From a virus: a stretch of 47,383 nucleotides of DNA. The notes beneath the pieces are model-generated. The model was not told where the DNA came from. It was given only the letters and a program-made list of their open reading frames with translations, and did no database searches. Each line of letters opens with the position of its first letter. The first letter of the stretch is position 1. The stretch spans positions 1 through 47,383 of IMG/VR virus record IMGVR_UViG_3300010389_000029; one strand, written 5' to 3'. The translations under genes and the position numbers were made by a program. Below are positions 1,812 to 17,402 of the stretch, piece after piece.

Positions 1812-1812
1812 A

Positions 1813-2811
1813 TCATTTCACGAAGGCAGCGTTGGTCCGTAAGAACTCTTCCCAAGTAGGATCCGATGTTGTGGGCGTAGGAGATTGATCGCTTGGGCCA
1901 GGTATAATACTGCTCCACCCTTTAGCCCGCGCTAAAGCAGAAAGCATCTCCAAATTATCGTAAAGCAACGCAAGGGATTCAGGGTCTTCTCCAGAAGACT
2001 TTGCCCTGGACACCGCGACATTAGCATCCATCAACCTATCGGCCAATTGAACCTGAGTAAATCCATCAGCCTCCTCTTTCTTGACGGGCTTGTAAGTAAA
2101 CTGATTACCTCCACCAAGATTGATAGTGACCGACTCAGCTCCTGCCTCCGCAGCCTTCGACATAACCTGCTCTGCTTTCTTTTCGGCTATCTCCTGCTCT
2201 TCCATGCTGGTTATACGATCCAACATCCGCTTCATACCAGCATAGGTAGTTGGTATCTGATCTTGCGGGATATAAGTGGAAAGTTCCTCCCTCATATTAC
2301 CCATCTCTACAAGACGCTTTCCTTGTTCACCAGCGAGCAGGTTGTCTCGGAATTTAAACAACTCCTCCTGCCCTTCTTGGCTCATTCCTTCTGGAGGTTG
2401 AAAACTACGGAGAGCATTCAACTTACCAGATTCCAAGTCAGACTGCATCTGTCTAGTAGCAAATCGATACCCTTGGTTGTCGTTTATTTGCTGGTCTATC
2501 TTAGCTCGTTGACTCGCTTTATCCAAAAGCAAGTCTTGCTCACGAAGGGTCATTTGCCGCTCGCGCAACGAATAATCCAAAGCCTGATTCGCAGCCCGAA
2601 GCTTAAGTTCCTCCTGTGCCAAACGAGTAGACGCAGGAGTAGCAGCTTTGGTAATGCCTTGCAGAATAGTGCGCCCAAGACTAGGGACTGATTCCCCAGG
2701 CCCAAGCTTACCCTGTCGGGCGCGTTCCATCAGGGAACGACGTTCTGCACCGGCTTCCATGCCAACGCCCATGCTTTCAAAAAAGCCTAAAAATGGATTG
2801 TCTTCTGCCAT
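1813..2811 (-). CDS. Virion-associated protein, coiled-coil rich (internal virion protein candidate)
   Basis: 332-aa ORF packed tightly between neighbouring genes. Q/E/L-rich heptad-like sequence. Sits directly upstream of the giant protein. Confidence 0.6.
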   Translation of the reverse strand: MAEDNPFLGFFESMGVGMEAGAERRSLMERARQGKLGPGESVPSLGRTILQGITKAATPASTRLAQEELKLRAANQALDYSLRERQMTLREQDLLLDKASQRAKIDQQINDNQGYRFATRQMQSDLESGKLNALRSFQPPEGMSQEGQEELFKFRDNLLAGEQGKRLVEMGNMREELSTYIPQDQIPTTYAGMKRMLDRITSMEEQEIAEKKAEQVMSKAAEAGAESVTINLGGGNQFTYKPVKKEEADGFTQVQLADRLMDANVAVSRAKSSGEDPESLALLYDNLEMLSALARAKGWSSIIPGPSDQSPTPTTSDPTWEEFLRTNAAFVK

Positions 2812-2818
2812 AACTTTA

Positions 2819-3631
2819 TTACATGAATGCTTTACCTAAGTTAGCGAGGAATCGTCTTCCGTAACCAGGTTGGCTTTGACTGGAACCCGGATACTGATAG
2901 CTATCTGGCGTAACCCTAAAATCAGAAGTCGAGAAAGGTTGTGGCCCAGCTCCAACTGCTCCAGCAGATCCTCCTGCCGCAGCTCCTAACGCACCAGCTC
3001 CCGGGATCAAGGCTCCTAACGCAGCACCTCCAATTTTTGCTACTGCTCCTCCTACAGCTCTAGTCACAGGATCAGGTTGTGCGGCAATTCTAGCAGCTTC
3101 CATGTCTCGCTCGAATCGTTGATTCCTCTCTCCTTGAGCAAAAGTTAGTCGGGCTTGAGGCGACAGGAACATAGAACCTACGCTAGACCTTGGAGCCATC
3201 GAAGCATACTGCGACAAAGCCTGTGCGGACTGTCCCATGGCCGTGTCGATACGTTGCAAGCTCGTCAGACCTAAGTCGCGCAACTCAAGGTTACGCGCAA
3301 ACTGACTGCCACCAAAACCCCCCTGCACAGATCTCGCCGCCGCACGATCCGTGATCGCACGTTGCACATCCGCAGGTAACTCGCCGCGCAAACCAGCTTG
3401 TAGATTGGAGACCTGTTGCTGAATGATGTCGCGTGTGCCTGGGGCTATCTTTTCAAGGACTGCGAGCGTCGTGTCAGTGTCTGCCTCAGCTATGTTTCGT
3501 GAGATGCGTTGCGCTTGAGGTAACTGCTCCTGTATGCTGTCAAAAGCTTTCTGAACTTCGACATCTGGGTCGATTTCCTTGAACTCAGGGACTTTAACTT
3601 TGGACCCAAAAATAGACTTTAGGATGGACAT
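2819..3631 (-). CDS. Virion-associated protein with a Gly/Ala-rich C-terminus (internal virion protein candidate)
   Basis: 270-aa ORF with GGAGGA 8 nt upstream of the ATG at 3631. C-terminal GGAALGALIPGAGALGAAAGG tract. Confidence 0.6.
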   Translation of the reverse strand: MSILKSIFGSKVKVPEFKEIDPDVEVQKAFDSIQEQLPQAQRISRNIAEADTDTTLAVLEKIAPGTRDIIQQQVSNLQAGLRGELPADVQRAITDRAAARSVQGGFGGSQFARNLELRDLGLTSLQRIDTAMGQSAQALSQYASMAPRSSVGSMFLSPQARLTFAQGERNQRFERDMEAARIAAQPDPVTRAVGGAVAKIGGAALGALIPGAGALGAAAGGSAGAVGAGPQPFSTSDFRVTPDSYQYPGSSQSQPGYGRRFLANLGKAFM

Positions 3632-3654
3632 TTTACTTTTCCTCCATAACAGGG

Positions 3655-3682
3655 TTGACTAAACCCAAAAGTTGGGTAAGTT
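3655..3682 (+). promoter_or_regulatory. Sigma70-like promoter for the HNH gene: TTGACT -16 nt- TAAGTT, with ATG 8 nt after the -10
   Basis: ttgact at 3655..3660, taagtt at 3677..3682, ATG at 3691. No Shine-Dalgarno in between. Confidence 0.4.
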
Positions 3683-3690
3683 GGTTTCAT

Positions 3691-4338
3691 ATGAAAACGC
3701 TTGACGATGTTATTAACGATCCGGTAACCCGGTTTTATTACAACCATAATTTTTGGAAGCACGTTGATGTTCCGTTTAAGGAAGATCCCAATATTTGTTG
3801 GGAATGGGAATCTGTAACCCAAAACAAGGGCTACGGATACTGGGGGCAACACAAGTTTTTGGCGCACAGGATTGCCTTCACCTTGTATCACAACAGACCT
3901 ATTGAGAAAGGAAAAGTGCTTATGCACATTTGTGATAACCCGAGATGCTGCAACCCACATCATCTCCAAGAAGGAACGCAAGCAGAGAACCTGCACGATG
4001 CGGCTTCTAAAGGACGACTTAAAGGACCAGTCAAGCACCTTATCCACCCTGACATACTCCATAAAGCAGCGACTTACCAAATTAACCTTACCCAAGCCGC
4101 CAATGATCTTGGTTGCACTAGAAGATACCTTCTGCATAAGTGCATTAAGTATAGAAACAAACACGGAATACCCCACAGAAGATCCATCAATAAACCCCTT
4201 ACGGAATCTGAAAAAGATTTTATCAGAGAAAATTTCCCAGCTCTTAAAGGAGCGGAAATAGGTAGACGACTCGGACAAGACAGGGCAGTCATCAACAAAT
4301 GGATTAAGCGTATGGGTCTGCGTGATCATTCTAAATAA
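3691..4338 (+). CDS. Free-standing HNH homing endonuclease (HNH_3-type) with C-terminal HTH-like segments
   Basis: Motif HICDNPRCCNPHHLQEGTQAENLHD. The track ORF 3655..4338 starts at TTG and the first ATG is at 3691. It is the only plus-strand gene inside the minus-strand tail operon, and its 3' end overlaps the 3' end of 4331..5335 by 8 nt. Confidence 0.8.
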   Translation: MKTLDDVINDPVTRFYYNHNFWKHVDVPFKEDPNICWEWESVTQNKGYGYWGQHKFLAHRIAFTLYHNRPIEKGKVLMHICDNPRCCNPHHLQEGTQAENLHDAASKGRLKGPVKHLIHPDILHKAATYQINLTQAANDLGCTRRYLLHKCIKYRNKHGIPHRRSINKPLTESEKDFIRENFPALKGAEIGRRLGQDRAVINKWIKRMGLRDHSK

Positions 4339-5335
4339 TTTCAGGCATGCCACCGGCACCCCAGCTTTCAGATTGAATATTCATTGGTTCTACGTTGGAT
4401 TTCCCCTGGTAATGTGTCAGCTCAACCTCCAACAAGCGGATAGCTTCCCCAAAGTATCTGGCTGCTTCACCCACGTTCTGTTGCTCCTCCAGCTGCACTG
4501 CCTTGGCAGCGTTCTTCAGTGCAGGTAAATTGCCCAACACAAACCAATCCGTGTCGCGCCTTACATCGATATGATCCAACTTCACGACGGCTCGCACGAC
4601 TCGCTTGTTAGTAAGGGGATCTCCCGATCCGCACACATACTGAGGGGCATCCCCAAGTCCTGGGATGATGCTTCGTCGATAGTCTGGAAGGGTTTCGTCC
4701 CATTCGTAATAGCCGATCGGCACGACGACTGACTCTCCAGTAACCTTTGACAAATGAACCGGGCCATTCGTAACCGGTTTCTGGACTCCAGTAATTGTAG
4801 TAAATATGTTGCTCGACCCTGTCGGGGTCGTGCTGATGGTAATATATTCCCCGTCAACCCAAGTTCCGTTGTCGAGTGTTCTAATCCAATTCCCGTTTTC
4901 ATCATAACCCTGAACAAGGAGCTTGGCCGATGCACTCTCGGACACTTCGCTGTAAACCCGCAAAGTCGAGGAGAAATCCGTCATGTCAAGGAACACAGGA
5001 GATCTACCACGATCCATTAGTTGCAACTCACTGGAGTTGCCGGTTGTCCTGATGCCAAACCCTGTCTGTAAATACTCAAACCAATTATTCCGAAGTGTGA
5101 TCGGTTGATGGTTAACTGCCAAAGCCTCAATCGAGGCAACCTGCCTCGGCCAAGTCAGGCACCCTTCCGAACTCACACATATCTGATACGTCTGAAAGGT
5201 TCCCCAATACAAACCCTGCATCATGAGACGCTGGTGTGCTTCGTTCACGATCTGCACCAACCTTGTGTCCTCTGGATCAAACCCGAGGAAATCCGGTATG
5301 CGCGATTGCTTTACTTGGCCTAAAGTCAGTTTCAT
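4331..5335 (-). CDS. Virion structural protein (tail or adaptor candidate)
   Basis: 334-aa ORF. Its ATG overlaps the upstream stop (ATGA). Position within the tail gene block. Confidence 0.6.
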   Translation of the reverse strand: MKLTLGQVKQSRIPDFLGFDPEDTRLVQIVNEAHQRLMMQGLYWGTFQTYQICVSSEGCLTWPRQVASIEALAVNHQPITLRNNWFEYLQTGFGIRTTGNSSELQLMDRGRSPVFLDMTDFSSTLRVYSEVSESASAKLLVQGYDENGNWIRTLDNGTWVDGEYITISTTPTGSSNIFTTITGVQKPVTNGPVHLSKVTGESVVVPIGYYEWDETLPDYRRSIIPGLGDAPQYVCGSGDPLTNKRVVRAVVKLDHIDVRRDTDWFVLGNLPALKNAAKAVQLEEQQNVGEAARYFGEAIRLLEVELTHYQGKSNVEPMNIQSESWGAGGMPEII

Positions 5336-6072
5336 CCTACGTAGTATTGTCTAGCGGTTCGTTTGATGAAGTAAACACCATAGTAAGGAGGCATGTTGTT
5401 GTGTGCCTGACCGGTAGTTCCCGTCATTGATGTTGTTATTACTCCTGCTTTATTAAAGTTGTTGTAACTAGCGTTATTGGTGTGACCACTATTTTCATGC
5501 ACTGTACCGTCCGCTAAACCCGAAGGATCTGAAGTAGACGCCGGTCCTGCTTGAGCACGATAGTAAGCTTCTCCCAAGTGCCCGTGATCCGGTAGTTGGT
5601 CTGAGGTCAATGTAACAGTTTCAGAACCACCGGTGGTGCCAGAATCTACCTCCGTCCCAGAAGGCAATGTACCTGCCCCCAACGGAAACTTGCCTGACAG
5701 ATCCGTGTCGATTTCCCAGAAAGGACCGCTGGAAGACCTCACTGCTCCAGCCGTTCCACCATCCAAAGTGGCTACACTATCCGCAGAACCCTTGTATATC
5801 TGTAGTTTAGTGTCCCCGGCAGGGATATTGTGCGGCCATACCCATGCACCGTTGTAAAAAATATACTGACGGACAGGTGCGCCAGAGGATGTCTTGATCC
5901 ACAACTTGTCGCGGTCATCAGCCCCAGGCGCAGTTTCTGAAATAATATACTTCAGGGATCCGTCCAGAACGGTGCCTGTCATTTGCGACACCAAGTCAAC
6001 AGCGTGTTCTTGCAAGTCTTCGTAACAAGACTTACTCAACGTCCCCATGGTTAAGGAAATATTCGTGCTCAT
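5332..6072 (-). CDS. Tail fibre protein with a phage tail-collar-type C-terminal domain
   Basis: C-terminal GSETVTLTSDQLPDHGH...GQAHNNMPPYYGVYFIKRT resembles the tail collar domain. Start overlaps the upstream stop. Confidence 0.7.
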   Translation of the reverse strand: MSTNISLTMGTLSKSCYEDLQEHAVDLVSQMTGTVLDGSLKYIISETAPGADDRDKLWIKTSSGAPVRQYIFYNGAWVWPHNIPAGDTKLQIYKGSADSVATLDGGTAGAVRSSSGPFWEIDTDLSGKFPLGAGTLPSGTEVDSGTTGGSETVTLTSDQLPDHGHLGEAYYRAQAGPASTSDPSGLADGTVHENSGHTNNASYNNFNKAGVITTSMTGTTGQAHNNMPPYYGVYFIKRTARQYYVG

Positions 6073-7871
6073 AATGTAATCTCAGGGTATTCCGTTAACG
6101 GACACCCCGAATCTGTTGTCTGTGTTCCTGTCGGTCTGTCAGGGTAGATGTCTTCGCTAATTACCTCTGCGAAAAACCTCATCGAGTCTACCTGCGCGTA
6201 ACCTACGCCCTTTAAACGAAACTGAAAAGTATTCCCTAAGTTGCCAGGAGTCTTGGTATCAGTCTTGGCAGACGTATTGGGAGGGTTGCCGAAGCTACGT
6301 CGTGGACGATACGACGGTCTGTTCTCCGTCAGACTAATGCAGTTGGCGAAGTCACTGTTGCAGAACTTCGTTTTTGCATTCTCACTCCAAGTCGCCCATT
6401 GATTCCAAACCAAGGATTCATCCGGTCTGGTGTAAAGAGTGAAGTCAACTTGTCCCCGCACATTGTTCAGCCAAGCCTCAAACCGATCCAAGCGTTTCAT
6501 CTCATACGGGGAATCAAAGCTTGTGCTTCGGGTTTCGATATACCATTCGATTGGCAGCTCATCAGTGCCGTTGTAGTCAGTAGTCGAATTCGGATCCAGT
6601 TCCCACAGCTCAATGTCAGTGCCGTTTACCGCAAAGGCAAAGCACCGGTCTCTCTGACCAAACTGACCTCGGACTAAATGCAGAAAATCAAGCCCAGTCC
6701 ATATGCCGTCATACGCCAAGGGAGACTTTACCCGTAAGCCGCTGATCGGATTAAAGTCCATGCTTGCAATGGCCTTGTGGATTACACCACGACTGGACTT
6801 ACGCGAAACACAGGTATGCAGGAGACGGTTGTCAAACTCTACCGCACTGGAGTGCTTGAGCAAAGTAGGTGACTCGTTCTGCAACGCACGGTTGATTTCG
6901 TTACTTAAAGGCGTTACCCCAGGCGATCCAAAATCCCTACGGGCGTATATAAGTGACCGTATTCCGTCTCGGGATCTGAAATACAAGTCGCCATTCACGT
7001 TCAGAGGTGTGAACGGACCAACCGCACCACTCGGGGCTACCAGTCTCTGGACCGGATAGGACAGGTTCTTCCACTGAGTTCTGTCTGTAGGAACACTCGT
7101 CGCAAAAGCACTGTTGCCGGTAAACACGATCAGCTCCCCATCCCCAAGAGCCGTATCCAACGATCCCATAACCTGCATGGCTGTTATGCCACCGGCGTTG
7201 GATGGAGTCGAAAACGCACCACCTTCGTTCAGGTAATCGTTCTCGGTAAACTTTAAAACCGCATCCCTGCGGTTCAAGTCAGGGTTACCGCTGGAAGAAC
7301 CAACCAAGTCACCCGCTGCATACTCAGAAAATCTTCCTACCCACAAACGACCGTTGCCATAAGTGGATACCGCTCCAGTCGGAACCTCATCACTTAAGGC
7401 CGCAGACCGTCGTGCCTCCGCACGATTGTATATGATCGGCGCACTCTGCCCGTCCTGAATAATCATCCAGTCTTCGGCTTGCTGGAAAGTGACCACATCC
7501 TGATAAGTGCTGTTCCTGCCATCCGTAGGCGTGATGTCGGTGACCTTATAGGATTGGATGGGGTTGATCGCAAACAGTCGTCCACCAATAGAACACACAA
7601 TCTCAGACTGATCACCTACGGACCTAAAATACCCTGCCCCTTGGAAATGGGCCGTCGCAAGTTGGAAGTTATTCCGGTCATCCTCGGACGCAAAGGTAAG
7701 CGTTCGCTTGCGAAGCCCAGGTCGAGGACCAACCGCACCACCACGAACAACACAATTAGCCGCCCAAGAAAGCTGGTTGGGCTGAAGCAACTTCGGTCGA
7801 AGATTGCTGTCAACCCCTCCTTCAAAGGACACATAAGCATCCCCCTGTAATTTGGACTTGGACTGGGCCAT
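6069..7871 (-). CDS. Large tail protein (nozzle/tubular-type candidate)
   Basis: 600-aa ORF. TAATG overlap with the upstream gene. Position between two fibre genes. Confidence 0.55.
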   Translation of the reverse strand: MAQSKSKLQGDAYVSFEGGVDSNLRPKLLQPNQLSWAANCVVRGGAVGPRPGLRKRTLTFASEDDRNNFQLATAHFQGAGYFRSVGDQSEIVCSIGGRLFAINPIQSYKVTDITPTDGRNSTYQDVVTFQQAEDWMIIQDGQSAPIIYNRAEARRSAALSDEVPTGAVSTYGNGRLWVGRFSEYAAGDLVGSSSGNPDLNRRDAVLKFTENDYLNEGGAFSTPSNAGGITAMQVMGSLDTALGDGELIVFTGNSAFATSVPTDRTQWKNLSYPVQRLVAPSGAVGPFTPLNVNGDLYFRSRDGIRSLIYARRDFGSPGVTPLSNEINRALQNESPTLLKHSSAVEFDNRLLHTCVSRKSSRGVIHKAIASMDFNPISGLRVKSPLAYDGIWTGLDFLHLVRGQFGQRDRCFAFAVNGTDIELWELDPNSTTDYNGTDELPIEWYIETRSTSFDSPYEMKRLDRFEAWLNNVRGQVDFTLYTRPDESLVWNQWATWSENAKTKFCNSDFANCISLTENRPSYRPRRSFGNPPNTSAKTDTKTPGNLGNTFQFRLKGVGYAQVDSMRFFAEVISEDIYPDRPTGTQTTDSGCPLTEYPEITL

Positions 7872-9043
7872 TAGGCTAGGCTCTTAGCGGTTTGATACCA
7901 AACATAAGTGGAACCGTCGAATATAGCTTTTAGGGTTACGGACTCGTAGTATTTACTCCCGCTTCCACCTAAAGTATCAGGCACATCGGCAGAACTCCCC
8001 GGACCATGGACTATGAATCCCGCAGAGTCTGTTCCCAAAAAAGTTATCGTGTTAAAGTTATTGTTTACGATAGTCAAATACTTTGAAGCGGATGCAGATG
8101 CATAACTATTCGCAGGCGGTAAAGTGAGGCTCACAAGAGCTACAGCCCCAGTTAGTAAAACAGTAACGCCAGGATTATCATCATCAGGAACATCCGTTAA
8201 AGTTAACGTGGAAGCCTTAGCAACACGAACAAGCTTATCTCCAGGCACAATAGTCGTGGACGTGTGAGGTACCCAAGCAGCGGTAGTCCCGTTGGACTGA
8301 AGTATCGTATCAGGACCACCAATAGGCAACCGGTTAGCTTGACCGCTAGTCCCGCCAACAAGCAAGTCGCCCCGAGTTGTCATGGGACTCAAGGCATCAA
8401 ACCCAGCCAACGCAGTAGACTCCCCTGTCCCTCCATTGGCTATAGGAACCTGACCTGTGATACTGGTGTTGGTGCCACCGAGATCAACCGCACGGTAGAT
8501 CAAACCCAGAGTCTCTCCTGAGTCTGCATGCAGAATCTGGTTGTCAGGTCCAGCCCCAAGGGGCGCGTTCGCTGACCCAGTGTGACCACTCAAGTCTCCT
8601 TTCAGAGAGTTAATCGCCACAGTAGGGTTAGGGTAAGTGCCACTCAGATCACCGCCAGCACTTCCCGACAAAGATCCAGCCGGTCCTTGAACTCCACCAG
8701 CACATACTTTACTGGTCGCTGAAATCGTCGTGGACGGTGCTGCGTTTGCTGGGTATGCACCGGAAGCCGTATCTTCCAGATTACGCAACACAACAGTCGT
8801 CCCATCAGTGATAGTGACCACGGCCATATAGCCAGCAGTCTGAACATACAGAGTCTGACCAACACTCATCCAGTCGGTGTTCCCAACCGACACAGACACA
8901 GTGGCCAACTCAGCTGGCATTAGGAAGGATCCTGTTACCGTAGTGTAAGCGTTCTGGCCATTAGTGCCATTGGTGCCGTTTGTTCCATCAGCACCCCTCG
9001 GGCCAGGGGCTATAACGATGTTTGTTTGTTCTGGGCAGCTCAT
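7871..9043 (-). CDS. Tail fibre with a short collagen-like G-X-Y tract
   Basis: N-terminal GPRGADGTNGTNGTNGQN (six G-X-Y triplets). The rest is Gly/Thr/Ser-rich and fibre-like. Confidence 0.65.
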   Translation of the reverse strand: MSCPEQTNIVIAPGPRGADGTNGTNGTNGQNAYTTVTGSFLMPAELATVSVSVGNTDWMSVGQTLYVQTAGYMAVVTITDGTTVVLRNLEDTASGAYPANAAPSTTISATSKVCAGGVQGPAGSLSGSAGGDLSGTYPNPTVAINSLKGDLSGHTGSANAPLGAGPDNQILHADSGETLGLIYRAVDLGGTNTSITGQVPIANGGTGESTALAGFDALSPMTTRGDLLVGGTSGQANRLPIGGPDTILQSNGTTAAWVPHTSTTIVPGDKLVRVAKASTLTLTDVPDDDNPGVTVLLTGAVALVSLTLPPANSYASASASKYLTIVNNNFNTITFLGTDSAGFIVHGPGSSADVPDTLGGSGSKYYESVTLKAIFDGSTYVWYQTAKSLA

Positions 9044-9046
9044 ATC

Positions 9047-9400
9047 TTATGCACTCAAAGCGTCTTCATCCGCACGAACCCAAACTCCACCCGTAGTGTA
9101 GTCGCTTGGCCGCACGTAGTTCACCCCGTCATCCGCATTGGTGCCGGTGTTGTCCCACCTCCAATGCGTCAGGTTCTTGCCGTCAGGCGCGTCAGTCCCG
9201 AACACAGTGGCAATCTTGTTGGTTGACGCAGTCGCAATGGCTCGTAATGCAACAATCGTATCCACCGCATAAAAGCCCTGCACGTCAGAAGCAGACCCAC
9301 CAATCACACTAGTGATGTAAGCATCCAGCGTCGTGGTGGTAATCGCCGTGCCATCAGCACAGTTACAACAGTCATTCGGATTGGGCAATGCACTAGCCAT
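9047..9400 (-). CDS. Small fibre/tailspike N-terminal-like protein, first gene of the virion operon
   Basis: 117-aa ORF. The segment AVDTIVALRAI...THWRWD resembles N-terminal modules of tailspike proteins. Confidence 0.5.
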   Translation of the reverse strand: MASALPNPNDCCNCADGTAITTTTLDAYITSVIGGSASDVQGFYAVDTIVALRAIATASTNKIATVFGTDAPDGKNLTHWRWDNTGTNADDGVNYVRPSDYTTGGVWVRADEDALSA

Positions 9401-9436
9401 ACCAAACGGAGGCTACCCAACTAATTTTGCCTTGAC

Positions 9437-9485
9437 AATAAAAATCCCGCCCCAACCAGAGTATCCAACAGCCGGTTGAGACGGG
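9437..9485 (-). terminator. Strong intrinsic terminator in the leader of the virion operon
   Basis: Minus-strand RNA reads CCCGUCUCAACC, a 16-nt loop, GGUUGGGGCGGG, then AUUUUUAUU. Two of the 12 pairs are G.U, so the stem is complete only in the minus-strand transcript. It lies 36 nt upstream of the ATG at 9400. Confidence 0.7.
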
Positions 9486-9561
9486 AATTTTCGAGTCGTT
9501 CCAAACTCTCAATGAAGCCAGTTCTACCCCAAACCCACTCGGATCCGGGACTGACGAGCAA

Positions 9562-9596
9562 AAGTTACCACTGAGGCCCAGTATCGTCAAACAAAT
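9562..9596 (-). promoter_or_regulatory. Promoter with the recurring motif ATTTGTTTGACG -17 nt- TAACTT
   Basis: Plus-strand cgtcaa at 9585..9590 and aagtta at 9562..9567. It shares the ATTTGTTTGAC motif seen at 13822, 31256, 15525, 37589 and 39671. Confidence 0.5.
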
Positions 9597-9728
9597 TTCC
9601 GCTTGGCGGGACGAAATTGACGTATGGCATCAGTGAAAACAACATGGCTTGACAGTCACGGTTCGCAAGTCGTGCATTGTAGAGAAGTAACCACTGAATC
9701 AGAATGACCACAACTAGAAAGTAGGTTC

Positions 9729-9923
9729 TCACATATCGTAGACTGTTCCACCGGCTTCTGCCCACGCATTCTTTGCTCCCGACACCCCTTCTTCCTGCAA
9801 ACGAGCGAATAGAGCCATGGCGTGGACTGAAACGCTATTGAAGGCATCGGGGGCAATGCGGTAGTCGTTGTAAACGTCGCCATCTTTGGACACGGTCCAT
9901 GGACCCCGCAGTGGTTGATCCAT
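9729..9923 (-). CDS. Small hypothetical protein (64 aa). The frame stays open upstream to a single in-frame TGA at 9990..9992.
   Basis: Track ORF. Upstream in the same frame lies a 22-codon ORF (10058..9993) ending in that TGA. Confidence 0.5.
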   Translation of the reverse strand: MDQPLRGPWTVSKDGDVYNDYRIAPDAFNSVSVHAMALFARLQEEGVSGAKNAWAEAGGTVYDM

Positions 9924-10087
9924 GATCCATTGACCATCGCCTTTGTCGCGGTAGATCGCTATGATCTCAGTGTTTGCTTCGGGGTGATGTCATGTGGCTT
10001 GGACGTATTCGTCCCCTATTTCAAGTAGTGACTTGGGTGTTGTTTTGTCGTCTTTCATGTTATCGAATAGTTTGTGATGGATTTATG

Positions 10088-10252
10088 CTATCGCATCCAT
10101 GTGCCTTCCTTGATAGCTGCCTTGCGGATGACACTGTATGCGTTCAAACATTCCCTACAATGATATTGTCTGCCGTCCTTGGCCCGCTTGTTGTTGGCAA
10201 ACTGGGCGACTGGTTTGGTCTGGTCGCAGCCTCCGCAGTGTTTGGTTTTCAT
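10088..10252 (-). CDS. Small zinc-ribbon protein (54 aa)
   Basis: Manual translation: MKTKHCGGCDQTKPVAQFANNKRAKDGRQYHCRECLNAYSVIRKAAIKEGTWMR. ATGA overlap with the upstream ORF. Too short for the track cutoff. Confidence 0.55.
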   Translation of the reverse strand: MKTKHCGGCDQTKPVAQFANNKRAKDGRQYHCRECLNAYSVIRKAAIKEGTWMR

Positions 10253-10425
10253 GATAACGTCACAGTCAGGTCAGGTTCTAATGTGATGCACTCGAAATGC
10301 AGTGCTCCGTATCGCTCTCTTGCTATTTCTTCAGCAAGCCTTGCCATTGCTTGTTCAGTTATTTCAACTTCATGAACGGTTGTCTCTCCGTTCTCATATG
10401 TCAAAACTCTGGCTTTAATCTTCAT
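10249..10425 (-). CDS. Small hypothetical protein (58 aa)
   Basis: Manual translation: MKIKARVLTYENGETTVHEVEITEQAMARLAEEIARERYGALHFECITLEPDLTVTLS. ATGA overlaps at both ends. Confidence 0.55.
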   Translation of the reverse strand: MKIKARVLTYENGETTVHEVEITEQAMARLAEEIARERYGALHFECITLEPDLTVTLS

Positions 10426-10682
10426 GCTTTCCCCTCCATGATTTCTTTGGCAACTATCTTCATGGCTAAATACTCAGCGGAACCCACCCCGTACCCTCCT
10501 GTGTCTATTTCGTCCGCTCTCCTGTTTACCTCTGCCATGAACTGTTCCAGGTCGACGTAGGGTCCAATATGGTGATGGTGGTTTTTTAGGTCGGATGCTC
10601 CGCAGTCCTCGTTGCGGTCAAAGCAGTCAACAGCATCAAACGCCAGCCACACCGTCATTGGTGGTTTGTTATCACAGCTCAT
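10422..10682 (-). CDS. Small hypothetical protein, paralogue-like of 10672..10959
   Basis: Probable start MSCDNKPPMTVW at 10682. It shares a 16-nt identical 5' segment with the next gene. Confidence 0.55.
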   Translation of the reverse strand: MSCDNKPPMTVWLAFDAVDCFDRNEDCGASDLKNHHHHIGPYVDLEQFMAEVNRRADEIDTGGYGVGSAEYLAMKIVAKEIMEGKA

Positions 10683-10959
10683 TTTTGCCTCCATTCAGCT
10701 CTGTGAGTATGTCTTTAATAGCTCTGCCAAGTTCCATTAAATACTTCTCTGGTGACTCATACCCTCTCATTCCTGCTTTGGCGCGTTTAAGAAGTTCCTC
10801 ATTGAGCCAGTCTTTGAGAATGTATGGGCCAACATCCGATTCCCGCCTTCGCAAACCGAATGCCTGCCCGAAACGATTGTCCATGTGGCTGCCGTCCATG
10901 TGTACGTTTGATATGTTCTCTCGAAAGTAAAGTGTCCTTGGTGGTTTGTTATCGCTCAT
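10672..10959 (-). CDS. Small hypothetical protein
   Basis: Probable start MSDNKPPRTLYF at 10959, with ATGA overlap onto the Lar-like gene. Confidence 0.55.
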   Translation of the reverse strand: MSDNKPPRTLYFRENISNVHMDGSHMDNRFGQAFGLRRRESDVGPYILKDWLNEELLKRAKAGMRGYESPEKYLMELGRAIKDILTELNGGKNEL

Positions 10960-11282
10960 GCTCCAATCTCCTTTCTGAGTTTGGTGGCGCATATTCGTAA
11001 ATCAAGCGGGTCTGTTTTGCCTGCGAAGTATCCTTCCACCAACCTTAGCAGCTCCATTACCTCAGAGCGGCGCGGGATGGAGTTCCACTTAGTCCCACGC
11101 TCATCATCTGACCATGGGCCATCTGCGTCACAGTTGTTGCACCGGACATATTGTCCCATCTCGTCTAAATTGTATCCATCTCGCAGCTCAGCATAAGTGC
11201 TGCCGCAAAACGGACACGGTTTCAGCTTCGGCTGATAAAACTCCTTTGGCAAATCGCACGATGGCGGTCGGTTGGTGGTCAT
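10956..11282 (-). CDS. Lar-family restriction alleviation-like zinc protein
   Basis: KPCPFCGSTYAEL...YVRCNNCDADGPW matches the Lar-type CPFCG...C..C...GP pattern. Confidence 0.6.
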   Translation of the reverse strand: MTTNRPPSCDLPKEFYQPKLKPCPFCGSTYAELRDGYNLDEMGQYVRCNNCDADGPWSDDERGTKWNSIPRRSEVMELLRLVEGYFAGKTDPLDLRICATKLRKEIGA

Positions 11283-11653
11283 GATTCCACCTCCTTGCAG
11301 ACTCGGACCTTGCTGCAGGTGTAGCCTTTTTGTTGCATGTAGCTGGATTCAGAAATATTAACAAGACAGATATTAAGGTCTGCGCCAATACAGCTTAATA
11401 AATATTCACCCTCATCATAAGCCTTGGCCTTTGCTTGCAACTCCACCAGCTCCTCGGCGGTCGGGATTGTGAGCCATTGGCCGACGGCCCCGTAATCCTG
11501 TTCCCAATCATGCAATGACGTTGCCACGACACCGTCATGCCCATAGAGATGCCCGTTGCCCGGGTCCATTACGAATATATGCTCCCACTCATACACGTCT
11601 GACTCGAGCCAGTAATACGGTCCCGGCTTTGTTGGTAGTTGATTAGCCTCCAT
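11279..11653 (-). CDS. Hypothetical protein
   Basis: Likely start MEANQLPTKPGPYYW at 11653. The track ORF extends to 11740 from an upstream start inside the previous gene. Confidence 0.5.
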   Translation of the reverse strand: MEANQLPTKPGPYYWLESDVYEWEHIFVMDPGNGHLYGHDGVVATSLHDWEQDYGAVGQWLTIPTAEELVELQAKAKAYDEGEYLLSCIGADLNICLVNISESSYMQQKGYTCSKVRVCKEVES

Positions 11654-12791
11654 ACAAACCTTCCCCCTTCCTGTGCGTTCCGAAGGTAGAGTGTGCCGCA
11701 TACGCCGCCGGGACATACTTCGCCACACCCGCACCCACACACTCAGCTACCTCGCCGTTCAGGTATTTGTTCAAGGTCACCCCGCACACTTCGTTCAGAG
11801 GCAGTGGTTGCCTTCCATCATGGGTATTGGACTTGTGGACCTGCACCTGCACATAGCGGTTCATACCTCCATGGAGATACGGACCCTGCAACCAGCCATA
11901 CAGATTAAGCCCACGCATGTGGATGTTGTTTCCAGCCGCGAAGATCGCAGTCTGTGGCCGCTGCGCGTTGTGTGGACCCTCCATCTGAAGATCCAAGAAC
12001 TTCGGATCTGCCAGATACACATTGGCCATTGGTGCCTGCTTGATGATGCCCGTCTGGATAGGTGGCCCGTGCTTGATACCTACCTGTGCACCTTGGTGCT
12101 GTTGGATGTTGCAGTCCCGAATCCAAAACCTGTCCTGATTGTCTGCCAGATATATCGGCAACGTCCCGTTGTGCGCCACGATCAGGCAGTTCTCAATAGA
12201 CTGCTCGAAAGGTCTGACGTGGAACTGATCGTCCACATACGTGGTAGGTTCCACGTAGATCCCAATCGGTGCATTGGTTTTAAACCCGTAGGCTATACCC
12301 GCAGAGTTTGTCCAGTTGTCATGGAGGGTCGGGCCTTCATCACAGTGGAACCGCAGGGTGCTGCCCCACCTCGTGGGTGACCACAGTCTGAACCTACCGG
12401 GGAGTCGTTTTGTGCTCCTAAAGTTATACTCCGGTGCCGTCGCCACAATCGTGATCACAGGCATGGACACAGACCCAAACCACCCGTAACCCGACGGCGA
12501 TTTCCCCTGCTTGCTCGTCCAGTAGGCCTCTCCCTCCAAAAAGTCTTTCCGCTGCTCCGCTTGGCCTTCCTTCACGATGCGAGACCAACTGCCGTCTGGA
12601 TCTTTGGGGTCCAGTTCATAGTGATAGCGCATCAGGCCCGTAGGTGCTGTTCTCGGTATCTGAAGCTGATCAACCTGAGCCTGCAAAGTCTGCAAGCTCG
12701 CCGTATGTGATTGTCGTAGCTTTGAGACTTGCTCCGGTAGCGAAAGCAAATCCTCAAATGTTTTTAGTAGTGTTTGTAGTGTCTCGTTCAT
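11643..12791 (-). CDS. Hypothetical protein with an N-terminal coiled coil and a repetitive beta-rich body (possible beta-helix carbohydrate-active protein)
   Basis: 382-aa ORF with AAGGAAGA 8 nt upstream of the ATG. Immediately downstream of the fucose-synthase-like gene. The fold assignment is only an impression from sequence texture. Confidence 0.55.
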   Translation of the reverse strand: MNETLQTLLKTFEDLLSLPEQVSKLRQSHTASLQTLQAQVDQLQIPRTAPTGLMRYHYELDPKDPDGSWSRIVKEGQAEQRKDFLEGEAYWTSKQGKSPSGYGWFGSVSMPVITIVATAPEYNFRSTKRLPGRFRLWSPTRWGSTLRFHCDEGPTLHDNWTNSAGIAYGFKTNAPIGIYVEPTTYVDDQFHVRPFEQSIENCLIVAHNGTLPIYLADNQDRFWIRDCNIQQHQGAQVGIKHGPPIQTGIIKQAPMANVYLADPKFLDLQMEGPHNAQRPQTAIFAAGNNIHMRGLNLYGWLQGPYLHGGMNRYVQVQVHKSNTHDGRQPLPLNEVCGVTLNKYLNGEVAECVGAGVAKYVPAAYAAHSTFGTHRKGEGLYGG

Positions 12792-12933
12792 ATACAGGTC
12801 TTCCTTTTATGTCTATGCTGATAGGCATTCCTCGTTTCATCCAAAAACGGTCAAATGCTCTCGTCCATTCTTCCAAGTTAAAGTTGGGTGGTTTCACATC
12901 CCAATCGATTTGCGGTAGTGGTTCACTGTCCAT
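12754..12933 (-). CDS. Possible small overlapping gene (59 aa)
   Basis: Internal ATG of track ORF 12754..13122, preceded by AGGGA. It overlaps the fcl-like 3' end by 39 nt and the next gene by 38 nt. Confidence 0.3.
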   Translation of the reverse strand: MDSEPLPQIDWDVKPPNFNLEEWTRAFDRFWMKRGMPISIDIKGRPVYERDTTNTTKNI

Positions 12934-13790
12934 TCTAATCCCTTTCGTAGTGGTGTTCGTTGCCATGTTTCCGGTCCTCCCATAACCTTGACCGGTGTGC
13001 CAACAGGCTTGTCCGATTGCCATCGGATCTTGCCCGTAAATTCCGTGATCTCTGCCAAAGTGTTGACCAAGTCCCCAATCGACGTAGCATGCCCACTTCC
13101 AACGTTGCGAAGTGAAAACCACTCAGGTTCCTCCATCAGCTGGGTAGCCGCTTCTGCCAAGTCGTCCACATACAAGAACTCACGCTTGGCGTCTCCATTA
13201 CCCCATACCTCAACCTCACCGTCCTTCGGTGCCTCCACAAACTTCCGAACCAATGCCGCAACCACATGGGAGTTTCGTGGATGGTAGTTGTCCCCAGGGC
13301 CATACAGATTGCACGGCATCACTGCCCGAAAGTCACAGCCATACTGGTCGTGATAATACGTAGCCAACCTGCAAGCTGTCGCTTTTGCCAGGCCATAAGC
13401 CTCGTTGCTCGGTTCAATCGGGCCTGTCAATAAGTCTGAAGGGATTGCCCCATCAGCCTTCGATACCGGATACGCACACGATGAACCAAAATACATCAGG
13501 CGTGGAACGTCGGTGAGGCAAGCAGAACGCATGACATTCATGGCCATGGCCATGTTCTCAGTGAAGAACTCAGTTGGGCGATCCAGATTGGCCTGAATGC
13601 CTCCTACCAACCCAGCTGCCATGTAGACCCTTTGGGGATTGTGCTGGGTGAAGTAGCGATAGACCTGCCTACTATCAAGTAGTCCTAGTTCTTCGCGGCT
13701 TGGGAGAAGTAGCTCCGTGTTTTGTTGCTTGAGGCGTCGTGTCAATGCACTGCCGACCATGCCCGTGGATCCTAAGATAAGTGTTCGCAT
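12894..13790 (-). CDS. fcl: GDP-L-fucose synthase-like NAD(P)-dependent epimerase/reductase
   Basis: MRTLILGSTGMVGSAL Rossmann motif, catalytic YGLAK, and overall Fcl/WcaG-like length and order. The track starts at TTG 13799 and the first ATG is at 13790. Confidence 0.8.
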   Translation of the reverse strand: MRTLILGSTGMVGSALTRRLKQQNTELLLPSREELGLLDSRQVYRYFTQHNPQRVYMAAGLVGGIQANLDRPTEFFTENMAMAMNVMRSACLTDVPRLMYFGSSCAYPVSKADGAIPSDLLTGPIEPSNEAYGLAKATACRLATYYHDQYGCDFRAVMPCNLYGPGDNYHPRNSHVVAALVRKFVEAPKDGEVEVWGNGDAKREFLYVDDLAEAATQLMEEPEWFSLRNVGSGHATSIGDLVNTLAEITEFTGKIRWQSDKPVGTPVKVMGGPETWQRTPLRKGLEWTVNHYRKSIGM

Positions 13791-13797
13791 TGGGGAC

Positions 13798-13835
13798 AAT
13801 AGACCACGGGTCTGGTATTTTTGTCAAACAAATAT
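13798..13835 (-). promoter_or_regulatory. Promoter ATTTGTTTGACA -18 nt- TCTATT, with the fcl ATG 7 nt after the -10 (leaderless-type)
   Basis: Plus-strand tgtcaa at 13822..13827 and aataga at 13798..13803. No Shine-Dalgarno. It shares a 15-nt identical core (ATTTGTTTGACAAA) with the integrase promoter. Confidence 0.55.
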
Positions 13836-13991
13836 ATTGAAAATAGGAAAAAATCTCACGGGGGGTGTATTAATATTGATACCATCGAAAGGGGGGCGGG
13901 TGGCCAAGCTCAGAGGAGAAAAATAATTTTACCTCCCCCCCCTCCCCCTTGCTTTTCTTTTCAAAAGATTTAGAGCCTTGGGTGTAAATGT

Positions 13992-14477
13992 TTAACCTTC
14001 AAGAACTTGCGTGTCTTGGTCTTTTACACTAGGCGTTGATAGGACGTTAGAAATGTGCGTCACATTTAGTGTTTTGGGAGAATCCTGATTGCCCATGCCT
14101 AAAATCTTTTGCACCTTCTCAACTATTTGTAAGCCCTTGAGTTGCAAATCACTACGTTGAATCATGCTTGGAATGTCGTCAGGAATTGGGGTAGTTTGCA
14201 GACGTTTTAGAACATTGCCAGCGTCTGAAAACATCTTGAGTGCGTAGGAATCGAGACGAGAAGATAAGCAGGCGGTCTCGTCGGTCAAGACCTCTTTAGT
14301 CTGGCTTAAAGCTTGGTTGAAAGCCGGATCACGACGGGATAGAGATAGAAGCTTGCTACGAACTGAACTGGGATTCACATCGAAGTATCTGGCGATTTCG
14401 GCTTGTTTTAAACCTTTGTTGACTAATTCCAGCAAGATATTGGGTTCAATCTTTTTCTGATTATTCGTCGTCCTCAT
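13992..14477 (-). CDS. HTH DNA-binding protein (regulator or small-terminase-like; undecided)
   Basis: N-terminal LLELVNKGLKQAEIARYFDVNPSSVRSKL helix-turn-helix. 161 aa. Confidence 0.6.
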   Translation of the reverse strand: MRTTNNQKKIEPNILLELVNKGLKQAEIARYFDVNPSSVRSKLLSLSRRDPAFNQALSQTKEVLTDETACLSSRLDSYALKMFSDAGNVLKRLQTTPIPDDIPSMIQRSDLQLKGLQIVEKVQKILGMGNQDSPKTLNVTHISNVLSTPSVKDQDTQVLEG

Positions 14478-14483
14478 ATTTTA

Positions 14484-14513
14484 GCCTTACCATAGAATGT
14501 TAGGCTCGTCTAA
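14484..14513 (-). promoter_or_regulatory. Candidate promoter TTAGAC -18 nt- TAAGGC, 6 nt before the ATG at 14477
   Basis: Read directly. The AAGG could alternatively act as a Shine-Dalgarno. Confidence 0.3.
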
Positions 14514-14525
14514 CTTTTTGGCGAA

Positions 14526-14556
14526 CAAAAAGGCCGGACCTGCTTAGAGATCCGGC
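14526..14556 (-). terminator. Intrinsic terminator (GCCGGA, 12-nt loop, UCCGGC, then CUUUUUGUU)
   Basis: Read directly on the minus strand, downstream of the 225-aa gene and the micro-ORF. Confidence 0.5.
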
Positions 14557-14562
14557 TTGTGA

Positions 14563-14640
14563 TTAGAGAAACGCCGCCAGTATCCAGACGGCAACAAATG
14601 CGAGCGCAAACAATACGCAACAAATAACATCACCTATCAT
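14563..14640 (-). CDS. Possible 25-aa hydrophobic micro-protein
   Basis: MIGDVICCVLFALAFVAVWILAAFL. Its ATG overlaps the stop of the 225-aa gene (ATGA). Confidence 0.3.
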   Translation of the reverse strand: MIGDVICCVLFALAFVAVWILAAFL

Positions 14641-15314
14641 AGCGCAATCGCCCTTGTAGCGGATTTGAGTTGATAACCATGAACAGGTATCGAAACAGAC
14701 CTTGCTGGTTTACTTGTGCCGCAACACAATTGACAATCGGAGCAAGTTACGCCTTTGGAAGATGGGCAATCAACCAAACCAGCTGGGACAGGCATGGACG
14801 GATTGCGGGTAACAAACGCCCGAAATCCTAAGCTTTTAGCTTGCGCATAGTTTTCCGGCTCACATGAGACCATAAAGTAACGAGCGTATTCCTTCGCTTT
14901 TTCAAACGGCATCAGATGCCAGTCATGGAAGTACCCCGTCCAACCGCTTGCATTGTCTGCAATTAATTTGACTAGTGACAAGGGAATCAGACTAGGATTG
15001 CCATAGGCACCAAAGCGGACAAATTTGTTTTTGACCAGTCGGACAATGTCCGCCTTGTTTTTAGCGTATGGTTTTTTACCTGCCCAGGCGGCACGTTGGA
15101 TAGCATCAACGTAGTAGGAACCTACGTAACAACCGTTATTTGACGCCAACGGACAACCCTTGCATTGGGTTTTTGAGTCGTTGCCATTGCGTCTCGATTC
15201 GGTAACGGTTTCAGATCTGGGCACAATCCAGATCTGAATCGCTTTTCCGATTTTCCGATTTCCGCTTTTCTCTGTGGCAATGACCTGAATGGAATTTGTT
15301 TCGTGAAGGATCAT
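14637..15314 (-). CDS. Cys-rich hypothetical protein (225 aa)
   Basis: Track ORF. Cysteine clusters CKGCPLASNNGC and CPSSKGVTCSDCQLCC. I recognise no family with confidence. Confidence 0.6.
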   Translation of the reverse strand: MILHETNSIQVIATEKSGNRKIGKAIQIWIVPRSETVTESRRNGNDSKTQCKGCPLASNNGCYVGSYYVDAIQRAAWAGKKPYAKNKADIVRLVKNKFVRFGAYGNPSLIPLSLVKLIADNASGWTGYFHDWHLMPFEKAKEYARYFMVSCEPENYAQAKSLGFRAFVTRNPSMPVPAGLVDCPSSKGVTCSDCQLCCGTSKPARSVSIPVHGYQLKSATRAIAL

Positions 15315-15451
15315 GCTTCACCTCCTGCCAGTAAAGTCTTTACTTGGTTAATCTTATTCAAAAGCCGGTCGTCGAATACACCGGATTCTGCTTGTTGCCG
15401 CTCCTGTGCCTCTAATTGGGCAAGTAACTCTAATAGTTCGTTATGTGTCAT
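15311..15451 (-). CDS. Small helical hypothetical protein (46 aa)
   Basis: MTHNELLELLAQLEAQERQQAESGVFDDRLLNKINQVKTLLAGGEA. ATGA overlap with the 225-aa gene. Confidence 0.45.
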   Translation of the reverse strand: MTHNELLELLAQLEAQERQQAESGVFDDRLLNKINQVKTLLAGGEA

Positions 15452-15501
15452 TTAGGTTTTTAGATTTACGAGGGCAAACTTTATGCCCTCAATTCGGGAT
15501 A

Positions 15502-15535
15502 AACCTACGCCACCAGGTCAACATTGTCAAACAAT
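15502..15535 (-). promoter_or_regulatory. Promoter ATTGTTTGACA -17 nt- TAGGTT for the 15451 -> 14563 operon. A 7-bp hairpin (15470..15490) lies in its leader.
   Basis: Plus-strand tgtcaa at 15525..15530 and aaccta at 15502..15507. GAGGGCA/TGCCCTC palindrome downstream. Confidence 0.45.
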
Positions 15536-15662
15536 TATTTTTCTCCCATCTCCAACAACCCCAGGCTTTTACGTCACATAGCACAAATAACCAGTAGCAG
15601 CAGCGTTACATCATGAGGGGCAGGGAGTTATACATAATGCGCTAAAAAAACAAAAAAACATG

Positions 15663-15691
15663 TTGACGAGCAGCGGAAACGGTGAGATCTT
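15663..15691 (+). promoter_or_regulatory. Candidate promoter of the plus-strand module (TTGACG after an A-rich UP-like tract; weak -10 GATCTT)
   Basis: ttgacg at 15663..15668, preceded by aaaaaaacaaaaaaaca. Confidence 0.3.
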
Positions 15692-15732
15692 GAAAACGTC
15701 GAACATTTAACCCCTTAGAAACAAAAACCGAA

Positions 15733-16071
15733 ATGAAACGAACCACAACAGAACTAGCCGAGAATGTTTACGCAGCACTCAGCATGCATAAACTGAGTCC
15801 CACCATCAAGCAACCAACCCGCGAGGAGGCTATTGAGGCTATCGCCGGTTGCCTCAACAAAAAAAATGGGGCATGGCTCAAGACCTCGCCAAAAACCGAA
15901 TCCAGCCGACTGCTCTGGAAGTTGGTCAAATTCCATCGCTCCTCGGGTAGCCTGTGGGGCTACCCGTGGTTTGCCAATGTAGACCAGCGGGACCGGCTGG
16001 ATACTCTCGCAATCGTGATGCTCAAGGGACACTCACGGGCAGCAGAGGCATGGCGCAAAGCATTGACCTAG
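15733..16071 (+). CDS. Hypothetical protein (112 aa)
   Basis: Track ORF. Its start context aacaaaaaccgaaATGaaa is repeated at 16092. Confidence 0.6.
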   Translation: MKRTTTELAENVYAALSMHKLSPTIKQPTREEAIEAIAGCLNKKNGAWLKTSPKTESSRLLWKLVKFHRSSGSLWGYPWFANVDQRDRLDTLAIVMLKGHSRAAEAWRKALT

Positions 16072-16091
16072 AACCCAAAACAAAAACCGAA

Positions 16092-16283
16092 ATGAAATAC
16101 CTATACACAGTCCGATACAATAAATATCTCCCAGGCTATAATGCCGACACGGAGCAATCCGTATCCATCATCGACCGAAATGGTGAACTGGGCGAACGTG
16201 CCGTCTGCAACCGAGTGGAGCGGGAGCATGGCTTCCGACCTGATCGGATCACCCGCATAGAGTGCATGTGCTACGCAAATTAA
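16092..16283 (+). CDS. Hypothetical protein (63 aa)
   Basis: Internal ATG of track ORF 15954..16283 with the same aacaaaaaccgaaATGaaa context as the previous gene. Confidence 0.5.
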   Translation: MKYLYTVRYNKYLPGYNADTEQSVSIIDRNGELGERAVCNRVEREHGFRPDRITRIECMCYAN

Positions 16284-16293
16284 GGAGAATCAC

Positions 16294-16617
16294 ATGACGC
16301 TACAAAACTACAAATATTGGTTAAACGCCATGCGAGAAGCTGCAATCCAACTCCAGCAGCACGAGTTGATGATAAATCGAATACAAACCAATCGAGAAGA
16401 GTTGGCCAAAGCTAAGAAAACAAAAACGGGGAGCTGGAGATTTCGTATTCGTTGCGGTTCAAAGTACTGGCATCAGATCGCTAGAATGATGCTCAATGAA
16501 TTAGCAGAACGAGAGGCAGTGAAGTTTGTTGATATACAGGCAACGATAGAACTGCCTGAACGTGGCAGGACATTTACTAAACGCAGAGGAGAGAACAACC
16601 TATGGGCTAACGGGTGA
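16294..16617 (+). CDS. Hypothetical protein (107 aa)
   Basis: Track ORF. AAGGAGA lies 6 nt upstream of the ATG. Confidence 0.6.
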   Translation: MTLQNYKYWLNAMREAAIQLQQHELMINRIQTNREELAKAKKTKTGSWRFRIRCGSKYWHQIARMMLNELAEREAVKFVDIQATIELPERGRTFTKRRGENNLWANG

Positions 16618-16624
16618 ACCAAAC

Positions 16625-16646
16625 AACCCACGCAAGTGGGTTTTCC
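16625..16646 (+). terminator. Hairpin AACCCAC-gcaa-GTGGGTT followed by a short T-run (weak terminator or processing site)
   Basis: Read directly. Confidence 0.35.
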
Positions 16647-16684
16647 TATCAGGGGTCAATGAAGTCCCTTGATTACGAAAACCT

Positions 16685-16861
16685 ATGACAAAAAACACAT
16701 ATAAAGTGGGAGACACAGTCCTGCTGACCGACACCGACGAGATCGGTGAGGTCGCGAAAATAATAAAAACCGACCTGCTCACATGCGAACTGCAGTTTCA
16801 GGACGGTGAGGCAGGATGGTATGCCCACCACGAGTTTGAACCATTTGAGGAGGAAGCATGA
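16685..16861 (+). CDS. Small hypothetical protein (58 aa)
   Basis: MTKNTYKVGDTVLLTDTDEIGEVAKIIKTDLLTCELQFQDGEAGWYAHHEFEPFEEEA. ATGA overlap with the ASCH gene. Confidence 0.5.
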   Translation: MTKNTYKVGDTVLLTDTDEIGEVAKIIKTDLLTCELQFQDGEAGWYAHHEFEPFEEEA

Positions 16862-17229: not shown

Positions 17230-17402
17230 AAACACGATTGAAACACCCCGGCTGGAAACCACTGCCAGAACAAACCGAGTGGAACCAAGCAACCCAAGCG
17301 GGTCCGCTCTGGGACCGTTACTGCAACTACGTGGACGCCATGGAGGAAATCGGCGCACCCCACGACAAAATAAAAACCTTCGACCAATGGATAAACTCAT
17401 GA
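17226..17402 (+). CDS. Small hypothetical protein (58 aa)
   Basis: MKTRLKHPGWKPLPEQTEWNQATQAGPLWDRYCNYVDAMEEIGAPHDKIKTFDQWINS. ATGA overlaps at both ends. Confidence 0.5.
   Translation: MKTRLKHPGWKPLPEQTEWNQATQAGPLWDRYCNYVDAMEEIGAPHDKIKTFDQWINS

Follow-up and report, generated by a model that had tools for sequence, protein, structure and literature searches.

The stretch of DNA analysed here, referred to throughout as the window, is a 47.4-kb phage-like contig (47,383 nt) in which nearly all genes lie on the minus strand, grouped into replication, early-type and virion blocks (Table 1). It begins and ends inside an 18-nt tandem repeat, GCCTCAGTTACAGGAGCT (positions 1..101 and 47329..47383), with 48 nt common to both ends, and when the ends are joined as a circle a single 1664-aa virion-protein ORF is closed across the junction (44200..1811, minus strand), so that the window looks like a circularly permuted complete genome that was cut inside the repeat. 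Among cultured phages no match was found by blastn, and the large terminase is at most 29% identical to that of any sequenced phage (tblastn range 25-29%). A search for the host by two genome scans yielded matches only to a Pyrinomonadaceae MAG (39%) and, in part, to a Caulobacterales MAG, and no host was assigned; a scan for tRNA and tmRNA genes found none. In the convergent intergenic gap that follows the primase-like gene there are nine exact copies of AAGTGTCAT (18964..19285, in both orientations; 0.58 expected by chance), and all copies are restricted to this gap. The array is iteron-like and may serve as a replication origin or bind a regulator.

Table 1. Gene blocks of the window and features at the boundary between its early-type and virion genes (positions are those of the window)
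Feature	Position	Strand	Remarks
Replication block	31225 to 19310	minus	Integrase, helicase, exonuclease, family-A DNA polymerase, primase-like gene
Short block with endolysin		plus	
Block of small early-type genes	15314 to 9565	minus	
Conserved ~109-aa gene	9729..10058	minus	Upstream of the boundary in classes A-D; in-frame stop at 9992..9990 in the window
Small 55-aa ORF	9565..9732	minus	GTG (9732) overlaps upstream TGA stop; TAA at 9565; N-terminal hydrophobic helix; conserved C-terminal VPPSGNLFDDTGPQW
Promoter-like site P1 (initial annotation)	9562..9590	minus	TTGACG (9590..9585), 17-nt spacer, TAACTT (9567..9562); TGG just upstream (TGn extension)
Hairpin H1	9528..9549	minus	CCCGGAUCC/GGGUUUGGG; includes the G-run of the initial annotation
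Hairpin H2	9493..9508	minus	GAGUU-UGGAAC-GACUC; loop conserved; class A2 stem ACGUU/GACGU
Intrinsic-terminator-type hairpin	9437..9486	minus	12-bp core stem (9485..9474 with 9457..9446), extending to 15 pairs, then A and UUUUUAUU at 9445..9437
Loop core GUUGGAUAC	9461..9469	minus	Invariant in every hairpin-carrying lineage
Candidate P2, -35 (TTGTCA)	9433..9438	minus	Overlaps end of terminator T-tract; invariant in classes A, B, C, D and L061; TTGCAA in L062
Candidate P2, -10 (TAGCCT)	9410..9415	minus	17 nt after -35, 9 nt before ATG; predicted start G9403, 3-nt leader
First tail/virion gene (gp117)	9047..9400	minus	117 aa; ATG start, no Shine-Dalgarno; weak PF27114 (Phage_tail_beta) match in a homologue
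Virion block	from ATG 9400	minus	Tail-fibre-like genes, giant virion protein, large terminase, further structural genes

The interval ahead of the virion genes, described in the initial annotation as about 330 nt of non-coding sequence, is 328 nt long and holds a conserved 55-aa ORF, leaving a true intergenic gap of 164 nt. The frame of this ORF is kept in ten distinct class-A relatives (the classes are defined below), and its homologue has been called as a 57-aa gene in L013. Over its first 44 codons, seven class-A1 sequences show 23 synonymous as against 14 non-synonymous variants, while the last 12 codons are invariant in that class. We regard it as a conserved gene for a predicted membrane protein. 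The gene before it encodes a protein of ~109 aa with 21 homologues of 64-112 aa (18 of them of 108-109 aa). The in-frame stop codon that interrupts it is unique to the window, as 12 of the 12 relatives examined encode Trp at that place; either the gene has been hit by a nonsense mutation or the window contig has a sequencing error at this point. No Pfam or PHROG match was found for the ~109-aa protein; its AF2 model (pLDDT 88), a beta sheet with one long helix, gave no fold match in the PDB, and with neither family nor fold to point that way the protein was rejected as a candidate regulator. The only candidate for a transcription regulator seen in the early block is a 161-aa protein (13992..14477, minus strand), which has a weak, below-threshold match to helix-turn-helix proteins (Sigma70_r4_2, E = 8e-4; PHROG HTH DNA-binding protein).

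In the gap itself lies a hairpin with the arms CCCGUCUCAACC/GGUUGGGGCGGG, a 16-nt loop and a tail (AUUUUUAUU) that ends at 9437, 36 nt before the ATG at 9400; all of these, and the P1 hexamers, lie on the minus strand where the initial annotation had put them. As RNA, the tail 3' of the stem reads A-UUUUU-A-UU (9445..9437), and in relatives UUUUUU(A/G)UU. The claim of a strong terminator hairpin specific to the minus strand was borne out by folding, which gave -27.2 kcal/mol for the minus-strand RNA versus -15.0 kcal/mol for the plus-strand RNA; when both strands were scanned, no other hairpin with a T-tract in the whole window was as strong. (A separate terminator scan missed it only because loops were limited to 3-8 nt.) In Rfam there was no match in the window at gathering thresholds, and a permissive search of 9350..9800 gave only chance-level matches (E >= 0.36).

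By way of homologues of the 117-aa first virion protein, ~60 relative loci were fetched, and the hairpin proved to be kept, with compensatory changes, in ~40 metagenomic relatives. MAFFT, applied to all hairpin classes, did not keep the structures in register, and a covariance model was used in its place; built from class A, this model detects classes B and C. In the alignment of nine distinct sequences 100% of 93 cells are paired and four pairs are changed on both sides (controls in which the partner was slid by 1-3 columns gave 33-60% pairing and no double changes), counts that lean towards structure because the alignment was fitted to the model, and with which independent folds agree. Conservation of the stem, on which the initial annotation had made its case depend, thus held. 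Within class A there are also one-sided changes that preserve pairing, U.G becoming U-A in L001 and C-G in L013, and G.U becoming A-U in L020. The versions found in relatives have different stems (-22 to -32 kcal/mol), each with a U-tract. At the sequence level the element has what characterizes an intrinsic terminator, namely a stable GC-rich hairpin on the transcribed strand, a U-tract directly 3' of it and compensatory change: it is a real, conserved, strand-specific structure of the intrinsic-terminator type at the boundary between early-type and virion genes, and transcripts would be expected to end there.

The relatives can be grouped by what stands at this boundary. Class A (the window, L001, L020-L029 and L043, with L013-L018 as subtype A2) has the small membrane ORF, a spacer of ~163 nt and the hairpin. 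In classes B and C the same upstream gene (~106 aa) is followed by an unrelated ORF of 62 aa and then by a hairpin whose stem differs (CCCAGUCCCC/GGGGGCUGGG or CCCAGCCCC/GGGGGCUGGG). This 62-aa ORF (L012, ~2748..2936; also L031, L033, L034, L038 and L046), which replaces the 55-aa membrane ORF, encodes two CxxC motifs of the CxxCxGxG zinc-ribbon type and an arginine-rich tail; its Pfam matches, to DnaJ_CXXCXGXG and Anti-TRAP, are weak and below threshold. The hairpin is absent from class D and from L061. In L006-L011 and L063 there is neither the hairpin nor the element P2 described below, and the gene comes directly after an unrelated upstream gene, from which it follows that it can also be expressed from upstream. 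Finally, L062, at 27% protein identity, has another hairpin (CCCCCAGAG.../...CUCUGGGGG) with a T-tract.

Directly after the hairpin comes a candidate promoter, P2, which is kept in seven lineages (A1, A2, B, C, D, L061 and L062). Its -10 hexamer varies among them (TAGCCT, TACCCT, TAATCT and, in L062, where the pair is TTGCAA/TAAGAT, TAAGAT); the spacer is fixed at 17 nt (16 in L062) and variable in sequence between lineages; the distance from the -10 to the ATG is 8-9 nt (6 in L061), again with variable sequence; and the seventh nucleotide after the -10 is a purine in all seven. Taken together, the invariant hexamers, the spacer (constant in length, free in sequence) and the short, fixed distance to the ATG make up what we take to be the footprint of a sigma-70-type promoter. 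Since class D and L061 have P2 without the hairpin, its conservation is independent of the terminator. Judged by the E. coli consensus, P2 matches at 8/12 positions (TTGTCA 5/6; TAGCCT 3/6, with T1, A2 and T6 kept) and falls below the threshold of the promoter scan. By the same yardstick P1 also scores 8/12 and was not flagged, so that the case for P2 is a comparative one and not one of consensus strength.

The geometry of P2 predicts a leader of 0-3 nt. All lineages start the gene with ATG, and none has a Shine-Dalgarno sequence before it (such sequences are rare in this phage generally). When the window was scanned for a -35 of at least 5/6 with a -10 of the form TAnnnT, followed at 5-9 nt by an ATG that opens an ORF, the coding strand gave only gp117 and the integrase gene. 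The integrase ATG (31225) is preceded by TTGACA-N18-TACGTT-N6 (31261..31223, minus strand), the same leaderless-type geometry as at gp117. P2 seems to us a better candidate than P1 for the virion promoter; its activity, its start site at G9403 and leaderless translation from it are predictions from this arrangement.

We draw attention here to class D, in which a perfect 13-bp inverted repeat, CAATGCACTAGCC/GGCTAGTGCATTG, surrounds the ATG (L019, 2984..3021; identical in L047-L057; -23.6 kcal/mol, z = -4.95), with its 5' arm overlapping the -10-like TAGCCT. In readthrough RNA this repeat would hide the start codon, whereas RNA initiated at P2 would not contain the 5' arm; the repeat may be an alternative means of insulating the virion genes. 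Related lineages arrange the boundary in three ways: terminator then promoter, promoter together with a hairpin predicted to mask the start codon, or neither. One class-D contig (Ga0208013_1000116, 60,072 bp; L054 and L055) has the gp117 homologue twice, ~48.6 kb apart, which suggests that it is a concatemeric or circular assembly of a ~48.6-kb class-D genome.

The reading that we favour, and think probable though well short of assured, is that the terminator and the downstream promoter P2 form an ordinary module boundary, the less common twist being a virion transcript that is nearly leaderless. The hairpin and U-tract would act as a Rho-independent terminator that ends the minus-strand early operon, which begins at about position 15.5 kb and takes in the small genes and, last, the 55-aa ORF. 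P2, of the sigma-70 type, would follow directly after the terminator and share its T-tract, and transcription from it would start ~3 nt before the gp117 ATG, giving an essentially leaderless mRNA. In this arrangement the terminator would insulate the virion genes from early transcription, and antitermination would not be required. The initial annotation had concluded that expression of all virion genes depends on reading through the hairpin; with P2 lying downstream of it, neither obligatory readthrough nor a new antiterminator is needed. Several observations tell against the terminator with P2: the invariance of the loop core GUUGGAUAC is not accounted for, the match of P2 to consensus is weak, some relatives do without both elements, P1 is kept between A1 and A2, and there appears to be readthrough at two hairpins further into the virion genes.

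These hairpins belong to the part of the virion block in which the gene organization loosens. The gene string downstream of the boundary had been described as tight as far as ~31258, and this is true to ~39681 but not beyond, where there are further clean sites of hairpin plus T-tract beside intergenic gaps, all on the minus strand: 39621 (39646..39614), 36393 (36418..36360) and 34981 (35006..34972). At 39621 and 34981 the next ATG follows within ~10 nt, which implies that some readthrough of such signals must occur in this phage, and on that account the idea of processive antitermination stays alive at low probability. The site at 36393 is followed by TTGACT-N18-TAGTTT.

The boundary hairpin might instead be leaky, so that the virion genes are expressed chiefly through passive, partial readthrough of early-operon transcription, with TTGTCA...TAGCCT serving as a regulator-binding or translation-related element instead of a promoter. 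The relatives that have neither hairpin nor P2, and so express the gene from upstream, would fit such a scheme, as would the weakness of the P2 -10 hexamer; moreover, as most genes of the window have no Shine-Dalgarno sequence, it is usual here for internal initiation to do without. We nevertheless consider it unlikely, since the combination of invariant hexamers with a free spacer of fixed length, an ATG at a short, fixed distance and a purine where transcription should begin is characteristic of promoters, and a stem of -27 kcal/mol followed by a U-tract is not likely to be very leaky.

The initial annotation had itself proposed a layout like that of lambda PR'/6S/tR', in which P1 (9590..9562) makes a leader of ~115 nt ending at the hairpin and the virion genes need a readthrough driven by a factor or by RNA. 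There is some substance to this. P1 (TTGACG-N17-TAACTT) has a TGn extension, and its hexamers and spacing are kept in class A2 as TTGACA-N17-TAGGTT; the small ORF's final 12 codons, with the 75-nt leader after them, are nearly invariant in A1, and when the window is compared with L001, a block at 9584..9345 is 90-100% identical while its flanks are 47-82% identical. Within the leader, the window and L013 (A1 versus A2) differ in both partners of two pairs of hairpin H2, covariation which suggests that the region matters as RNA, and the terminator-like sites in the virion string that leave no room for a downstream promoter speak for some capacity for readthrough. Yet the conserved C-terminus of the 55-aa ORF, the identity of the leader and the covariation of H2 are equally to be expected of a conserved protein end followed by a structured 3' UTR.

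More particularly, P1 lies in the last 10 codons and the stop codon of the 55-aa ORF, its -35 being codons for F-D and its -10 the stop codon with three bases (W-stop), and as codons of a conserved protein the hexamers need no further explanation for their conservation. Counterparts of P1 were found in class A only, and none in classes B, C and D, so that as a general promoter it fails. In classes B and C the hairpin comes directly after the unrelated 62-aa ORF, the stop codon of which is 0-16 nt before it, too close for a lambda-like promoter and leader to fit in between, and the 520 nt upstream contain no promoter-like site; P2, downstream, is conserved much more widely than P1. Nor was any pause-like TAnnnT, of the sigma-dependent kind, seen in the first 25 nt after the predicted P1 start at ~9555. 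The initial annotation had recognized no Q-like or N-like antiterminator, and Pfam and PHROG searches of the ORFs from 9565 to 15314 agree, finding no antiterminator family (Q-like, N-like or other); nor has the conserved upstream ~109-aa protein a fold match in the PDB. It had further suggested an attenuator-like alternative fold in which an upstream G-run competes for the 5' arm of the terminator, but the G-run (9536..9527) pairs with CCCGGAUCC (9549..9541) within H1, and even when the terminator 3' arm was forbidden in folding, at a loss of 25 kcal/mol, the G-run was not predicted to pair with the 5' arm; no other antiterminator fold was predicted either. We therefore judge the lambda-like layout to be distinctly improbable. 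A short transcript from P1, specific to class A, is conceivable.

This leaves the loop core. Across lineages A, B and C the stems and flanks vary while GUUGGAUAC stays invariant, and recognition of it at the RNA level is possible. It was tried, and rejected, as a phased DNA activator site for P2, as its distance to the -35 varies (17, 20, 22 or 24 nt). A search of the window for complementary partners or extra copies of the loop motif gave GTTGGATAC three times on the minus strand, two of the three inside genes, and no informative complement, and a pattern scan of IMG/VR for loop, T-tract and TTGTCAA returned only the contig already known. The H2 loop, UUGGAAC, resembles the loop core. On these grounds one might suppose that an RNA-binding factor of phage or host binds GUUGGAUAC and the similar class-A H2 loop and modulates termination, RNA stability or processing. 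To the credit of this supposition, the loop core withstands double changes in the stem and unrelated flanks, its variable distance to the -35 argues against a phased DNA site, and H2 joins its similar loop to a covarying stem; but it is the least probable of the readings considered here, as the independent hairpin lineages number only two to three and shared descent may account for part of the invariance, no RNA-binding candidate is common to all classes except the ~109-aa protein without a known fold, class D and L061 do without the hairpin, and no Rfam family matches. It is just as doubtful that, on top of P2, the hairpin serves as an RNA switch, the factor bound to its loop and to that of H2 governing the amount of early transcription that reaches the virion genes, or processing or stabilizing the early transcript.

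To return to the terminator followed by P2, its main consequence is that the virion genes are predicted to start from a conserved promoter giving nearly leaderless mRNA, and that a new mechanism of antitermination need not be postulated. For an uncultured estuarine/marine phage lineage without a cultured relative, the boundary between early and late genes has now been placed, which should aid annotation and future transcript mapping.

How does this boundary compare with better-known ones? Lambda-type Q control has two defining features that can be tested for, a Q-family protein and a promoter that is conserved together with the terminator (PMC9388147, PMC6606751). Neither of the two is seen at the present boundary, and no Q-binding element or sigma-dependent pause element was identified there. 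As in lambda PR'/6S/tR'/Q, there is a terminator between early-right genes and a long late string, and in class A a promoter-like site ~115 nt before the end of the terminator; unlike lambda late control, no Q-family protein was found and the terminator is followed by a conserved promoter-like element. The upstream promoter-like site, unlike PR', falls within coding sequence, and sister lineages that have the hairpin lack it.

In the nut site at which lambda N acts, boxB is a hairpin whose conserved loop binds an arginine-rich peptide; it has boxA as partner, a 5-bp stem and a GNRA-like pentaloop, and no U-tract. The present hairpin resembles it in combining an invariant loop with a variable stem, and directly upstream of it classes B and C have a gene for a zinc-ribbon peptide rich in arginine. 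It differs in a stem of 10-15 pairs, a loop of 16 nt (in the window) and a U-tract, and where those classes have the arginine-rich peptide the window has a membrane peptide; the boxA-boxB pattern of lambda N/nut is not that of the window hairpin.

Leaderless transcripts are familiar from lambda cI, expressed from PRM, and from the middle and late genes of Thermus phages. The gp117 boundary is like these in that the -10 ends 6-9 nt before an ATG start with no Shine-Dalgarno sequence, and unlike them in that the leaderless transcript would head a virion gene string and is predicted from sequence conservation. Operon boundaries at which a promoter follows an intrinsic terminator are a general arrangement in bacteria and phages. 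Here, too, a GC-rich stem and U-tract end a block of genes, hexamers spaced by 17 nt follow directly, and the T-tract abuts the -35; what sets the present boundary apart from an ordinary one is the GC-rich -10 (TAGCCT/TACCCT), the predicted start 0-3 nt before the ATG and the invariant 9-nt loop core.
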